From assembly GCA_964016885.1 (NCBI GenBank), contig OZ024740.1, positions 280,612,001-280,676,000 on the forward strand: a DNA stretch of 64,000 nucleotides. The letters are read 5' to 3'. Positions 4,825-46,841 of the stretch are shown one piece after another. The DNA is from Eledone cirrhosa. Its lineage: Eukaryota. The first letter of the stretch is position 1, and each line of letters opens with the position of its first letter. Under the pieces are notes generated by a model that saw only the letters and a list, made by a program, of their open reading frames with translations, had not been told where the DNA came from and searched no databases. The position numbers were made by a program, and so were the translations under genes.

Positions 4825-8477
<3,653 letters not shown>

Positions 8478-15235: not shown

Positions 15236-15371
<136 letters not shown>

Positions 15372-16080
15372 CGGAAAAAATGAAACGAAATTTCATTTCT
15401 CACTCTTAGTACGGCTGTAACTTAAATGTAAGTATGTACACGTACATACATATATGTATACAGACGTACAGTAGTACACTACGGCTTAATTCAGGATGTT
15501 TGTTTACAAACACACCGAGCATTATAATAAATGTTCGGTGAATCCATACGTACATATATATATATATGTGTGCATGTATGTATATATACATACTACTGTA
15601 CGTCTGTATACATATATGTATGTACGTATACATACTTATATTTAAGTAACAGCCGTACTAAGAGTGAGAAATGAAATTTCGTTTCATTTTTTCCGTTTAT
15701 CGTTTTCGGTACCCCGGCCGATTAACTCACTCGATATGCAAATTAGTCTGCACAGCCGTTAATATGCATAAGGAAAGTATATACTTTCAGACGTTCAATC
15801 ATCTGGCAGGAAGGTATACGTTGCTGCCGATAGCTAATAAGCTTGAAACTAGTACAGCGTTCCTTTGCCAGTGTTGAACAAATGAGCAACAATGGTTGCT
15901 AGACACTGTACGGCTTAATTCGGGATGTTTGTTTACAAACACACCTAGCATTATAATAAATGTTCGGTGAATCCATACGTACATATATATATGTGTGCAT
16001 GTATGTATATATATATACATACTACTGTACGTCTGTATACATATATGTATGTACGTATACATACTTATATATATATATAA
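15372..16080 (+). mobile_element. Non-coding HHR-bearing element, family A (retrozyme or solo-pLTR-like)
   Basis: ~429-bp period (15481 vs 15910) with a ~165-bp direct repeat; 15372-15476 is an inverted copy of 15591-15695; sits next to (TA)n; second copy at 47715-48129. Confidence 0.75.
15818..15860 (+). ncRNA. Type I hammerhead ribozyme, family A (A6C core mutation)
   Basis: acgttg-CTGCCGA-tagctaataagctt-GAAAC-TA-GTA-cagcgt. Confidence 0.7.
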
Positions 16081-16322
16081 TATAAAACGAAAAATCATTG
16101 ATGCATCTGATCTCAATTTATTGTGTGTTACAATTGTTTCGCCGGCGGACAGCTCGAGACACGATCATTGGTTGGATCTGTCTGATTCTGGATCAGCAGG
16201 TTCGAAGGACACGTCTAATGATTTCGGAGCAAATTCTTTCATATCATACTCTGCTCTGTAAGAGCATAGAGTGCTCAACCGGCATACCGCCTAAGGAAGC
16301 ATCTTAGTCACCATCAGACACA

Positions 16323-16988
16323 CATTTCCTCTCCCAATTAGCATAATTAACCATATAAAAAATCAATTAGACCAGGCTATAAGAATAAAGGCTCCTATGA
16401 AGAAATATTTGATAAATAACCGAAAGCGGCCTCTTCGCGGTTGACCACAATAGAGTATTTACCCAACATTTCAACAGCATGTAGAAACTGACTAAATATA
16501 CCGTCAACCATACACAATTAGGTATAAATTTAAAGTTAGAAGAAACGTGTACATACCTTAATTACATCTCTACCATGGTTTCGTTCGTATTTTGAAATAT
16601 CCTATCATTAAGGATAACTCGAGTATCGAACTCATCAGGAGACAAACTCAATAGGACAGTTAATTTTCCAAAGCGATCGCGCCAGAAATAGATTAAAAAA
16701 ATGGCTAAGAATCGTGACGTGGCAGTGGTCAAGTTAGAAAGAAATGTAATTACGGTATGTACACGTTTCTTCTAACTTTAAATTTATACCTAATTGTGTA
16801 TGGTTGACGGTATATTTAGTCAGTTTCTACATGCTGTTGACATTTTGGGTAAATACTCTATTGTGGTCAACCGCGAAGAGGCCACTTTCCGTTATTTATC
16901 AAATATTTCTTCATAGGAGCCTTTATTCTTATAGCCTGGTCTAATTGATTTTTTATATGGTTAATTATGCTAATTGGGAGAGGAAATG
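16323..16988. mobile_element. Fold-back element with ~245-bp arms and an HHR in the spacer
   Basis: 16323-16567 is the near-identical reverse complement of 16744-16988. Confidence 0.85.
16566..16643 (-). ncRNA. Type I hammerhead ribozyme with palindromic stem III
   Basis: Minus strand: gtctc-CTGATGA-gttcg...cgaac-GAAAC-CATG-GTA-gagat. Confidence 0.88.
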
Positions 16989-17083
16989 GTATATATTTTA
17001 TCTAATAATTCTAAGGACATGATTTATGATATATATTTATATATATAGATATATATATATGACAGTTGGCAGGTAAGCAGTAT

Positions 17084-33297: not shown

Positions 33298-36200
33298 TTT
33301 TCTCTTTCTCTTAATTTTGAGTATATTTTTTGACCGGCCACCTTCCTGGTGGCAAGGTTGTAAAAGAAAAGAAATTGTCATCCCTTGAATCGCAAGAATG
33401 TTTTGCAAATTTTGAAGGTGCCAGCTATCGCAGCCATTTGTAGACTATGAATTAGGTAGCTGCGCTTTTTGTCCGCAAATCCAAGTTCAGTCATACTTTG
33501 GTCCAAGCGGGTTGGTATATAACCCGTAGCACCAATAATGATGGGTATGAAGCTAAAGGTGTATCTTGGATACTGGATTTGTAAACTCCTCATCAATGGT
33601 CCGTAGATGTCCTCCTTCTCCTGTATTTTTCTGACAACGTTTACATCAAGTGGGCAGCTGATCTCCACAACAGAACACGTTTTCAATGTGTGGTCCCAAA
33701 CTACAATATCAGGCCGGTTGTGCTTTAATTTGGTGGCAGTTTTTATTTTCAGGTTCCACCAGTATTCCTTAGTGCCATCTGTCTCAATATATTCTTCCTC
33801 GTTTGTTGTTGATTTTGTTTTCCGAAGTGCGTTCCAGATGGTTCTAGCTATCCCATCGTGTCTCATGGGGAGGTAGTAGCGAGATGACATTCTTTCGCAG
33901 CTGGCAACAATGTGGCTTACATCCTCGATCTTTGTTTTACATAGCCTACATTTATTGTCAGCTGCTGGCCCTCCTCTTTTGTGCAGCAGATATTTGGTAG
34001 GGAGTTCTTGTTCCTGTATTGTATAGAGATATCCCTCAAGGTGTGATGTCATAAACTTGTCGGAACTCCATGCCAGGCTTTTTGAGTGGTTTATCCCCTC
34101 TATGGTCTGTGTTTTACGCCTCAAGTATCCATGCACAACTTTTTCTGTAAATTGGTCAATTTTTTTTTCTTATTTGAACATTGAATAGGATCTTCCGATT
34201 TCTCTGGGTGAGAGATTTATATCGGGCTTTATTCCATATCTCTCCTCCAGATCAGTCGCTATTCTAATGATATTTCTTTTTTCATGGTCATAAACCTGGG
34301 CAAGATGGTTGCCAACCTTTTTCCTCTGTTGAAGGTGTTGCTTCAGTGTCACTATCCGGGTCTCATATGTTGTTAATATTGATTTTAGACCCCGGCCACC
34401 TTCATTGCGTGAGAAGTATAGCCTATCCACATCACCATTGATGTTAAAGTTCCCAGTAACACTGAGAAGTTTTCGAGTTCTAACATCCATCTCACTTAGT
34501 TCTTGCAATGACCAGTTCAGTAGGCCAAATGTTGGCGTTAGAATTGGCACAGCATAAGTATTGTGGGCAATGTATTTGTTGTATGCTGACAGTTCTGATG
34601 ACCATATTTTCTTTACTCTTCTGAGGTATTCAGTTCTGGTTCTCTCCTTATTTATGGGTCCATCATATCTGACATTCTCATCCTGTCCAAGATATCTGTA
34701 GTTGTCACCTGACTGCAGAGGTTGTATTGTCAGGCCGTTCATCTCTAGATTTCTAGAGGAGGGCACAGCTCTTCCACGTTTTACTGCCAAATATGCACAC
34801 TTGGACTCACCAAATTTCATTTTGATGTCGGTTGAAAATTGTGTAATGAGGTCCAATTGTTTCTTGATGTCATTGATATTTGGCCCATACAACTTCAGGT
34901 CATCAACAAAGAAAAGATGGGAGATACTTCTGGTCCCACTTCTTTGTCGACCTTGTTTCCTGAGTAGGTAAGATAGTGGATTCAGTGAGAGAACGAAGAG
35001 TAGCACTGACAAGCTATCACCCTGAAAGATGCCCTTCTGGTAATGTATCTTATCAGTCTTAACCTGCTCCTTCTCACCTCTAAGGATCAAACTGGTGTAC
35101 CAGTTCTTGGTCAGGCGTTCAACAGCAGCTACCAATGGTTGTGGGACTTTAGCTAACTGTAAAGCCTTAACAATCCACCCATGAGGTACACTATCAAATG
35201 CTTTTTGATAGTCCAGCCACACGACAGTCATGTTTCTGCGATTCTTTGTTGTTTTTTCCTGAATCATTTTGTTAGTTAGTAGGTGATCTATGCAACCCCA
35301 CACCTCCCTCTTTCCACCAGCTTGCTCAGGTGTTATGATGTTGTTGGTAGCACAGTGATCCTGTAAGAACAGGTTAAGGCACCCAGTATATAATTTATAC
35401 ATGATGTTTTGGCAGGCAATTGGGCGGTAATTTTTAGCAAGGGTGGTTTGGCTATTTTGGGGAATGAGGAGAGTAGAGGCAGTTGATAACCATCTGGGCA
35501 GTTCTTGTGTGCCCTTAATGGTTTCTGTAAACAGCCGTATGAGATCTTGCCGATAGAAAGTGAAATTCTTCAACCAGTATCCTGTAATGAGGTCTGGGCC
35601 TGGCGATTTCCTATTCGACATTTTCTGTAGAGCTGTTTCCAGTGTTGACCCATCTATGTCATATTGTTTTGTCTGGACATGTTGGCAGTAGTCCTGTTCC
35701 AGTTCTTTTAGCCAATTAGCTTGTCTGTTGAATCCGTCATCCGTTTCCCATACAGATCTCCAGTAGCTCTCAACCTGTTCTTTTGAAGGGGTGTCATTTA
35801 CAGAGATTGAGCTTTTGCCACCGAAGCTGCGATAAACTGATTTAGGATCTCTGGCAAACAATCTATTTAGCACTTGTCGTTTATGTGCTGTTGACTTATA
35901 TTTTAGTCTTTCTGTTGTAGCTGTGAGTTGTTGTTTCAACTGGTGTAATTTGGAGTTCAAAGTTTTAAATTTTGTATCTCCAAATCTTCTCTCTAACATT
36001 TTCTTTAGGTCTTCCTGGTGTTGTGTGAAGTTGCTCTCTATGTTGCATTTCATAACGACTGCGATGTGTGAGATACTTCGTCTCAGGGACAAAATTTTGG
36101 TTTTTAAATTTCGCATCCACGCTGGTTCAGGCTTTCTGTTTGTATCTTGATTGCGTGGTTTTAGATGTGTGTTATATGCTAGCAATGTGACAGCTGAAAC

Positions 36201-37325
36201 ATATAACAAAACATTAAGCGTTTCAAATGTCGTTTCTACACCTTTAGATCGTATAGCCTTCAGATAATTGCCAGCTATTTCGTTCACCGCTTCCAATTCC
36301 AATTTAGTCGGTTCTTTACTGACTCTAGTGTTGTATGGTCTGTCACTCACATTAAGGCTGTGTATCTCTTGAAACATATCATTCCATATCACTTGTAGGG
36401 AGCCCACAAGTTTTTGGTGCTCTGTTTGTTCAGTAGAGTCATGAATTTCAGCCTCGTTGTTGATGTGGTGACAATTACTACTAGAGTCAGCTGACCTTTC
36501 TCGCTGTTCTTCAGTGGAAGTGGGATGAATTTCAGCAAAATTGTTGGTGAGCTGTTCACTGTTAGATTTAGCTGGCCATTCTCTTTGTCTGTCAGTGGAG
36601 GTGGGGTGGTTGTCTACAAGGGCTGTATTTGTAGTATCACTCGATTCCGTTAGATGTATCAACTTACATCTAATGATACGTTTTGCCTGTTCATTTAAAT
36701 GCTTTGGAGAAAAGTCTAATTCTGGGTGTTTGGAGTTCCATAAAGTTTTTAGCCGTTGCATAAAACCGAACTTTTGGGGTTCAGATTGTTTGTATGCTTC
36801 ATATAATACTTTGTTAAGCTCGTAGGTCCACTGTGTACAACGGTTGTAATTGCGATTTGGTCGAAGGAGACTTGTACTTTTTGCCATGATGAGTTCGTCT
36901 ATTCACTAATATTTCGTATTTATTTTTCAAAATAGTCGATGATCTTCTTTAAAAGTTACGACAAAGTTCTGTCAGAATCAAATTTAAAGTTATTCACAGC
37001 TTGAGTAATATTTCTTTTCAGTTAGTTTTTAATTCTACAGCTGTGTTTTATATAAATGTAATATTTCTTTATAAATGTAATATAACAACGTTGCATTTAT
37101 ATGTTAAAGTGTATGTATCGTTCATATATCATAAGTGTATGTATCGTTCATATAAATAGGTGTTTTACAACACACTTACAGTTCAAACACTTATGTAGAA
37201 TTATTGTATGTAATCTTACCGCGTAATGTAGCTCAACTTTTTCCAATATATGGTATGTTGCCTTCATGTAAGCCGTAATTACACACGTCCGATTATCGGA
37301 CACTGACCACAACGGTCGCCATTTT
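33298..37325 (-). mobile_element. Near-full-length R4/Dong-clade non-LTR retrotransposon
   Basis: Single long RT + zinc knuckle + REL endonuclease ORF; (ATGT)n on both flanks; aaaatggcg at the putative 5' end. Confidence 0.88.
33378..36887 (-). pseudogene. R4/Dong ORF with one in-frame TAA at 34172-34170
   Basis: KSPGPD, NYRPIAC, WLDYQKAFDSVPH, GIFQGDSLS, HLFFVDDLKLY; after the stop the same frame continues EKKIDQFTEKVVHGY...CRLC...HIVASC...RHD...RPDIVV...VEISCP. Confidence 0.92.
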
Positions 37326-44759: not shown

Positions 44760-44921
44760 TATTTAACCAATAAATGGGGCCCTAACAGGTACTAATACTC
44801 CGGGTAAGAGCAGATCTGGGAGTGATAACAACTAATGGGTAATTCCACATTCCCCACAGCTCCTGAACTTCCGAACTGGAGCCTTGCCACTGCATGTAGT
44901 TTAATGTCATACCCAGGACAA
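44760..44921. repeat. Interspersed repeat resembling a common octopus repeat
   Basis: ggtactaatactccgggtaagagcagatctgggagt...gtcatacccaggaca; recognised from memory only, single copy in this window. Confidence 0.4.
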
Positions 44922-44924
44922 ATA

Positions 44925-46841
44925 TGTATATATACAACAGCACACGGAATCTAACACAACCAGATTCCCGATATACCAACTGGATCGCCCACTCTGCCCA
45001 CCGCCTGCCAACCGCGAGCTGGAAGAAAAACTCTCGAGGCTAAAACATACCGTATTTAACATCTTACGGAAACAGAAGAAGATAGCCCCAAACCTCTCTA
45101 GGACGCAACAACTCGCCCTGAAGAACCTGCAGAATAGGGAACTCATATACTTACCATCCGACAAAGGTAAAGCGTTTTGTATCATCTCTCCAGCCACATA
45201 CAACAACCTAGCCTTTGAACACTTAAGCGACAACGAACTATATACAGAGATCCCGGACATAACTGCAGCCCAGATCGAAAAACAGGCCAACTCCATTTGG
45301 TTCGACTTTTGTAGTAGAAGACAACTCCCAAATAAATTTAAGTCCAATTACACCACTAGAAATAGCAGACTGCCCACTTTCTATCACCTCATCAAACCCA
45401 TAAGAATAGTACTAAAACACAAATAAGACTCATCGTCTCTAGCATAGAAGGGCCCCTATACAAAATCTCCTGGCTCCTCTCCCAGGTCCTCAAGCCTCTA
45501 CACTCCACCTTTCCCGGGAATGTCAGTAGCTCCGACGAGGTCATACGTAGACTACACCAAATCCAGCCAGAACAACTTAAACTCAATAGATACGCCTTTA
45601 GCCTTGACGTTGTCTCCCTCTACACTACAGTCCCCGCTCATCCAGCTGTCGATTTATTGACGGACTGCGTGGTCGCCGAAGACGTCCACTGCTACGGCCT
45701 CCACCCGACGGACATACACCAACTTTTGTCCTTCACAGTGGACAACACGTACTTCACCTTCCACCACCACACATACATACATACAACAGGATTACCCATG
45801 GGATCCAGCCTATCGGGCCTGCTGGCCATCACCTACATGAACCAGCTGTAATTCCGAGCCCTCAACACCTGTCATTCCTATACCTTCTTCATCCGGTATG
45901 TAGATGACATACTCATCCTTACATCATCCCGTGAAGAAGCGGATAAAATATACATGACATTCTCCAGCATGGACGCCAATATAAAGTTCAGCATGGAACA
46001 CCCCGATGACTGCGGTTCCCTATCCCTATTGGACTTCCAACTCAGGGTAACAGAGGAAGGCGACATCCACACCTGCTTCTACAAAAAATCCGCCAGCGGG
46101 AACCTGTTTGTACATTCCAGATCAGCCCTCCCAGTCAGCGCTAAGTTCGGATACATAAGGAACGAACTAACACGTATCCGGAACAAATGCACCGACGCAA
46201 GAGACCGAGACACACTCACCACACATTTCCTGGAAGTACTTAAACTGAACGGATACCCGACGTCCACCGCGAACCGTGCCAGAAACAACAGAGGACACCA
46301 CACCCGAGGCACTAACACCTGCTTCCTGAAGCTCCCACACTTCAGTGACGAAACAACAACAGCCATCCGCAGATCTATCAGACGAGAGGGACTAGATATC
46401 CAGCTAGTCCACTCAGGACCTTCTCTACGCGGACAGCTAACCAAGAGACACTCCACCAGACATGACAGCCGCTGTACTCTGGCCAACTGCCCCATCGACG
46501 ACACAGACATATGCCACCAGGCTTACGTCGTATACAGATTAGAGTGCGACAAATGCAGCAATTTCTACGTAGATAGCACCACCAAACAACTTCACATTAG
46601 AATAAAAGAACACCTCAACACTAATGCTTCCTCATTTAAGAAACACCCAGTAAAAGGCAAAAACACCGACAAAAACATAATAGTTAGGATAGAAGCTAAG
46701 GAAAGAAACCTCGGCAATCTTAGAATTAAAGAAGCACTAATTATAGACACAACGCAACCACCAATCAATAACAGACTTGAACTCAACACACAATTTTTAA
46801 CAGGATAGAACACCTAGCCCCACACTTACACCTCCACGTAT

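Follow-up and report, generated by a model that had tools for sequence, protein, structure and literature searches.

Copies of a non-coding hammerhead repeat in Eledone cirrhosa begin in excess at the predicted ribozyme cut, likely through a minor self-cleaved-template route of Penelope-type insertion

Copies of a ~662-nt non-coding hammerhead repeat in the genome of Eledone cirrhosa begin, in excess and precisely to the base, at the nucleotide that follows the predicted self-cleavage site of the ribozyme. The window analysed here, a stretch of 64,000 nucleotides (assembly GCA_964016885.1, contig OZ024740.1, positions 280,612,001 to 280,676,000), carries a head-to-head insertion of this repeat, for whose mobilisation a Penelope-type enzyme working in trans was likely responsible. 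The excess of starts at the cut is likely the product of a minor route that uses self-cleaved RNA as its template; we put the probability of this reading at roughly three in four. The spike is well controlled, holds at the level of the family and, judged from the genomic copies, is likely cleavage-derived; the focal locus itself is a weak and ambiguous example of a cut-derived start. Throughout, unit positions are numbered such that +1 is the base after the predicted cut.

At the focal locus, inverted-repeat analysis of the window identified two arms at 16323-16571 and 16740-16988, each 249 nt long, which are 98% complementary and separated by a spacer of 168 nt. They differ at 6 of 248 positions, with one difference private to the left arm and five, including the one at +3, private to the right arm. 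The left arm lies on the minus strand and consists of unit ~489-662 (16571-16743) followed by unit +1..+248 (16323-16570), and thus reads through the predicted cut site. The right arm, on the plus strand, begins within a head-to-head junction of imperfect microhomology (16740-16752), at either 16741 (+1) or 16744 (+4), and extends to ~17037, where it stops at unit 297, the first fixed 3' end of the family, and runs into an AT microsatellite (17030-17062) that is likely the insertion target. The fold-back that the preliminary description had placed at 16323-16988 is therefore a real inverted repeat, but 16988 is not the end of the element. The left arm stops at unit 248, short of the usual 3' ends of the family, and is joined via TG to a separate repeat family of ~240 nt (16085-16324, minus strand). 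This second repeat, with 2,584 first-look candidates genome-wide, has (AT)n(GT)n on one side of its copies and mostly (AT)n on the other; since its other copies adjoin such runs, the arrangement suggests that the end of the left arm was lost through a later deletion. The idea that the left-flank repeat is a second hammerhead was rejected, as the motif was absent from the 10 loci scanned.

A hammerhead motif scan of the window with a loose filter returned seven rows, one of which is a type I hammerhead at the focal locus (16565-16644, minus strand). This agrees with the minus-strand ribozyme proposed earlier, for which cleavage is predicted between 16571 and 16570, after A17 at 16571. The predicted ribozyme has the CUGANGA...GAAA...NUH core and three stems of the type, with an open stem I of 5-6 bp, the core CUGAUGA from 16638, a long stem II, GAAA and a stem III of 2 bp with a palindromic loop; an Rfam scan at gathering score gave no match to it. 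The core is intact in 63 of 86 sampled copies. Stem II contains an insert of 49 nt and shows compensatory variation among 45 parsed variants (pair 3, C-G in 25 and U-A in 18; pair 5, G-C in 20 and U-A in 14), with pair 1 unpaired (A,A) in 15 of them; these counts come from related copies and are uncorrected for phylogeny, the changes falling between subfamilies. In folding calculations, the free fold of the monomer misses the active shape, and the constrained fold costs ~3 kcal/mol more. The computed minimum-energy fold of the dimer corresponds to the active-type arrangement, in which the palindromic stem III forms a duplex of 8 bp (-13.2 kcal/mol) with its 3' edge at -2. Dimer folding has been described for metazoan hammerheads with a short palindromic stem III (PMC4209133).

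The unit, whose length is defined by tandem copies, belongs to a family of thousands of copies. A first look at the 3.0-Gb genome yielded 3,529 candidates, 40 of which were scored; a 14-nt anchor (+7..+20) has 1,428 exact matches, compared to 18 for the reversed control, leaving ~1,410 copies. The copies sampled for closer analysis are 86 of the first 100 anchor matches listed, the other 14, which sit in one long tandem array, being left out. Family copies occur as dimers, trimers and the long array, with one type I hammerhead per unit. No frame of at least 120 aa overlaps the element, and it lacks the ORF with reverse transcriptase and GIY-YIG domains that characterises autonomous Penelope-like elements. 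Its 5' ends are scattered, and its 3' ends fall at two fixed positions, near unit 297 and unit 398, both running into (AT)n. Head-to-head pairs make up 31 of 54 unbiased loci; 18 of the 19 classifiable pairs combine one 297 end with one 398 end (p 8e-5) and one is 398 + 398, the remaining 12 of the 31 having an end that could not be classed. The Penelope-type mode of insertion suggested for the focal locus thus extends to the family, with its inverted, 5'-truncated adjacent copies, two fixed 3' ends and AT-rich targets, and the element fits an ordinary animal non-LTR retrozyme, forming a new family with Penelope-type insertions.

Some further features of the family may be recorded here. A tandem array of the 662-nt unit, ~30 kb long (G000:C1:92985991-93015760; loci L078 and L079), has its first copy inverted, and its spacings of 657-667 nt suggest higher-order repeats. 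In three unrelated head-to-head pairs (L031, L033 and L034), the arm breakpoints, taken from BLAST ends, lie exactly 33 unit positions apart, which may be chance. Unit 480-491 is near-complementary to -1..+12, and the 5' end of a cleaved monomer could pair with its own interior.

The window also holds two decayed GIY-YIG-bearing elements, namely a frameshifted Penelope-like element at 5350-7708 (+) with RT-like frames and a weak GIY-YIG match (E 5e-4, below the Pfam cut-off), fragments related to which are present in several fetched loci, and a second decayed Penelope-like element at 44905-46808 (+) with a GIY-YIG match above the cut-off. In a comparison across the window, neither has a DNA match to the 662-nt unit; no link to the window's own Penelope-like ORFs was seen at the DNA level, nor does the window show an autonomous Penelope partner that has sequence in common with the unit. 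A fairly intact non-LTR retrotransposon, with a reverse transcriptase frame of 909 aa and, behind it, a zf-RVT frame, lies at 33378-36902 (-). Another fold-back at 15367-15700 and 15909-16073 (110-nt arms, 96%, with a 165-nt direct duplicate), located between AT microsatellites, is probably a similar insertion of another family.

The preliminary description had proposed that, across genomic copies, truncation or inversion breakpoints should pile up at the cleavage nucleotide, and this is what we find. Copies beginning near the cut were detected with patterns that demand mismatches at conserved upstream bases. With the main pattern (mismatch at -12, -8 and -7; G at +1 and +3), 42 matches were obtained and listed in full; its reversed form had none. 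Exact starts at +1 with a mismatched (non-A) base at -1 account for 23 rows at 22 independent loci, among them L174, a weaker case that follows a short local duplication. Eight more matches are +1 starts blurred by microhomology, five sharing only A and three sharing TA with the flank, for an inclusive total of 30 loci. Starts upstream of the cut number five over -6..-3 (one at -3, one at -5, three at -6), and the rest are four internal indels and two unclassifiable matches, the indels and one of the unclassifiable rows having been classed by eye. The 30 loci are found on many contigs and in several subfamilies, and comparison of their flanks showed no sharing in register; where a long arm could be aligned, its identity to the majority unit is 76-97%. 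A second pattern (111 matches, control 12) revealed three starts at +2 among the 100 matches listed. By eye, ~34 among 100 listed matches start at +4..+7 against (AT)n, indicating that microhomology also shapes ends in this family; such starts may stem from joining at microhomology, from trimming of +1 ends or from both.

No comparable pile-up occurs at four control sites. The look-alike GAGAT at unit 417 yielded 9 upstream breaks among 757 copies; in no case does the break fall precisely at the G beside a mismatched base, and one case is compatible with such a start. The difference between 22/1,410 at +1 and 0/757 at the look-alike is significant (Fisher, p 1.3e-4), as is the inclusive comparison, computed with 29 versus 1 where the final inclusive count is 30 (p 5.7e-5). 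The 3' edge of stem II, probed with a pattern that lets through roughly a third of flanks, has four ends over four positions and one point variant. Unit 433-442 gave 70/2,538 with no single-base spike and, by eye, ~10 at 438/439, and unit 480-486 gave 21 matches genome-wide, a count with no denominator and mostly of AT microhomology. For this last reason, a second natural 5' end or start at unit 483-485, seen at ~9 of the first 30 biased loci, was not accepted. The Poisson tail for at least 22 events at a mean of 3-5 is 2e-12 to 2e-8. Over the controls, the +1 excess is ~5- to 10-fold, a value that is only approximate because the patterns differ in the flanks they pass.

The +1 excess supports the proposed footprint of hammerhead cleavage, but as that of a minor route: 84 of the 86 sampled copies read through the cut, indicating that cleaved RNA supplies no more than a few percent of the templates and that uncut or re-ligated RNA dominates. 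The share of copies that start at +1 is ~2%, or up to ~5% if trimmed ends are counted.

The partner arms of the +1 fold-backs point in the same direction. An adjacent inverted partner is present at 15 of the 30 +1 loci; none of these 15 crosses the cut, and 10 stop at +5..+32, although at L151 a second piece further out does cross it. For comparison, an arm start at +1..+35 occurs in none of the 31 unbiased pairs, and breakpoints no more than 35 nt apart in six of them, the two tests giving p 7e-7 and 0.003; since near-symmetric breakpoints are fairly common (6/31), the argument from the partner arms is weakened to the latter value. Because partners of +1 arms never cross the cut and mostly stop shortly downstream of it, both cDNAs seem to have been limited by the same RNA end. 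Several +1 fold-back junctions carry one to ten added bases. The fold-backs L106, L148 and L149 each combine a +1 arm with a longer partner that nevertheless lacks +1. Neither arm could therefore have been copied from the other, and this favours two separate priming events over snap-back.

Taken as a mechanism, we consider it nearly as probable as our overall reading that cleaved linear RNA of ribozyme sense is retrotransposed by Penelope machinery, with double priming at two fixed internal sites, and that the resulting insertions form a countable germline fossil record. After nicking of both strands of an AT-rich target by the enzyme, ribozyme-sense RNA would be copied into two cDNAs, one primed at each internal start site, whose ends would then be sealed to each other over 0-2 nt of microhomology or with a small number of extra bases in between. 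Most templates would be uncut multimers or circles, in which case the cDNA would read through the ribozyme; in ~2% of copies, the template would have the cut as its 5' end, and the cDNA would run off at +1. From these ends we infer that cleavage takes place in vivo. In L1 twin priming, two primed cDNAs are likewise joined at an inversion junction; here, in contrast, both primers would sit at fixed internal sites ~100 nt apart, and the arms overlap widely.

It is conceivable, but unlikely, that the spike is real and has nothing to do with cleavage, being caused either by reverse transcriptase stalling at the ribozyme structure, such as the stem III duplex of the dimer, or by a transcription start. 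This duplex is stable (-13.2 kcal/mol), and its 3' edge at -2 lies near +1. Stalling, however, would be expected to leave ends at -1 or blurred ones, whereas at 22 loci the -1 base is mismatched, and an A at that position in the 8 others is in keeping with chance; moreover, the longer stem II hairpin shows no pile-up. A capped RNA start would be expected to add a cap-templated G at -1, of which there is no sign, as only 4 of the 22 loci have G there, near the genomic G frequency, and only by coincidence would a start fall on the very base that follows the scissile bond. Less probable still is that the fold-backs are DNA-level events unrelated to RNA ends, arising through snap-back self-priming, replication template switching or misassembly. 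Many +1 copies are without any inversion, the arms within a pair stop at different fixed positions, those of L106, L148 and L149 are not copies of each other, and the focal arms differ at 6/248 positions. For head-to-head Penelope structures, self-priming on an antisense template has indeed been put forward (PMC3846280); contigs from three runs of one sample, none of which bridges the focal junction, are uninformative on this point. Run-off at a cleaved 5' end therefore remains our preferred explanation for the family-level spike.

For the focal locus, the case is less clear. Here the inverted copy had been described as starting at 16741 with two mismatches, and as copied from a self-cleaved RNA. 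The plus-strand copy does match from 16741, with two differences in its first 15 nt (+3 and +13). At +13, however, it is the left arm alone that deviates, the right arm having the family base, and the difference at +3 (G>A) may be no mutation: read in antisense, an intact element agrees with the window as far as 16743, beyond which intact copies part from it. Because 16741-16743 equals the normal continuation of the opposite arm, the right arm may start at +4 without any change, whereas a start at +1 needs one change (G>A) or a mispaired overlap. The junction overlap is 13 nt, and the near-complementarity between unit 480-491 and -1..+12 blurs the position of the junction.

We therefore lean, with some reserve, towards an ordinary truncation of the right arm, joined at +4 or within a +4..+7 microhomology, with the match to the cut site being coincidental. 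Such a join needs no mutation and accords with the complementarity just mentioned; fold-backs starting near +4 are known (L118 and L184), and the focal partner crosses the cut, as none of the 15 adjacent partners of +1 fold-backs does. On the other hand, among fetched loci there are 15 +1 fold-backs and only 2 starting near +4, a ratio to which the fetching, which favoured +1 candidates, contributed, and a 2-nt GA overlap with a mispaired end yields the observed sequence as well. Nor is the microhomology a hotspot: a junction pattern had 10 matches, of which one is the focal locus, six are point variants of intact copies and three are unrelated, and recurrence of the focal junction was accordingly rejected. 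On one side stands the surplus of fold-backs at +1 relative to +4, on the other the additional change required and the partner that reads through; balancing these, we rate derivation of the focal right arm from a cleaved end, by judgement and not by computation, at somewhat below even odds. Run-off at +1 would fit a 5'-cleaved dimer with an uncut second ribozyme; otherwise, the arm would be a chance join at +4, which can be reconciled with the family-level result. The earlier proposal of a self-cleaved template is thus better supported by the +1 spike of the family than by the locus on which it was based.

The element closely resembles the animal non-LTR retrozymes, which, as far as they are characterised in the relevant sections of PMC7229834 and bioRxiv 10.64898/2026.07.22.740005, likewise have a non-coding, low-GC tandem unit with one type I hammerhead and a short palindromic stem III suiting dimer folding, occur as monomers, dimers and long arrays, and have Penelope-like elements as proposed mobilisers. 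Its 662-nt unit compares with RNAs of 170-400 nt (PMC7229834) and families of 51-972 bp (bioRxiv 10.64898/2026.07.22.740005); it differs in its long stem II. Retrozyme RNAs of monomer size occur in vivo (PMC7229834), and the same sections of the two reports contain no mapping of insertion breakpoints against the cut. Endonuclease-bearing Penelope-like elements feature a pLTR, an inverted 5'-truncated copy, an optional tail and (TA)n targets (PMC8557442, PMC3846280). With Penelope-like elements (PMC8557442, PMC3846280, PMC11167929), the family shares head-to-head truncated arms, AT-rich targets, mostly uncleaved templates and a pair of fixed 3' ends, the extended one of which is confined to one arm, but it has no ORF, and its tail is ~100 nt long rather than 30-40. 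Two internal reverse-transcription starts and two-strand cutting, with which the paired arms of the family are consistent, have been demonstrated in vitro, with unprocessed RNA as the main substrate (PMC11167929); the read-through of 84/86 copies is in line with the latter. For the anole element, the ribozyme is described as dispensable in vitro, and the RNA data presented there include no reads beginning or ending at the cut (PMC11167929), whereas copies starting at the cut form a measurable class here. R2 insertions have their 5' junction defined by the cut of an HDV-like ribozyme, and the microhomology at these junctions varies (PMC3774820). There, as is likely for the +1 copies here, the cut sets the insertion 5' junction; the R2 ribozyme, however, is of another class, its target is site-specific, and cleavage sets the full-length 5' end instead of serving a minor route.

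While ribozyme-cut 5' junctions in R2 (PMC3774820) and monomer-size retrozyme RNAs in vivo (PMC7229834) are already known, we found no study in the open-access literature in which the ends of Penelope or retrozyme insertions were placed relative to the hammerhead cut. The breakpoint test is cheap and portable, and it needs hundreds of copies, because samples of 20-30 would miss a 2% class. The base-precise +1 excess suggests that the ribozyme fires in the germline, and that ribozyme-sense RNA is a template, a choice between sense and antisense that was left open in the discussion of PMC3846280; it further suggests that cleaved RNA is a minor substrate. If this is true, ribozyme activity in vivo could be read from genomes alone, as the share of copies starting at the cut, in every Penelope or retrozyme family that bears a hammerhead.
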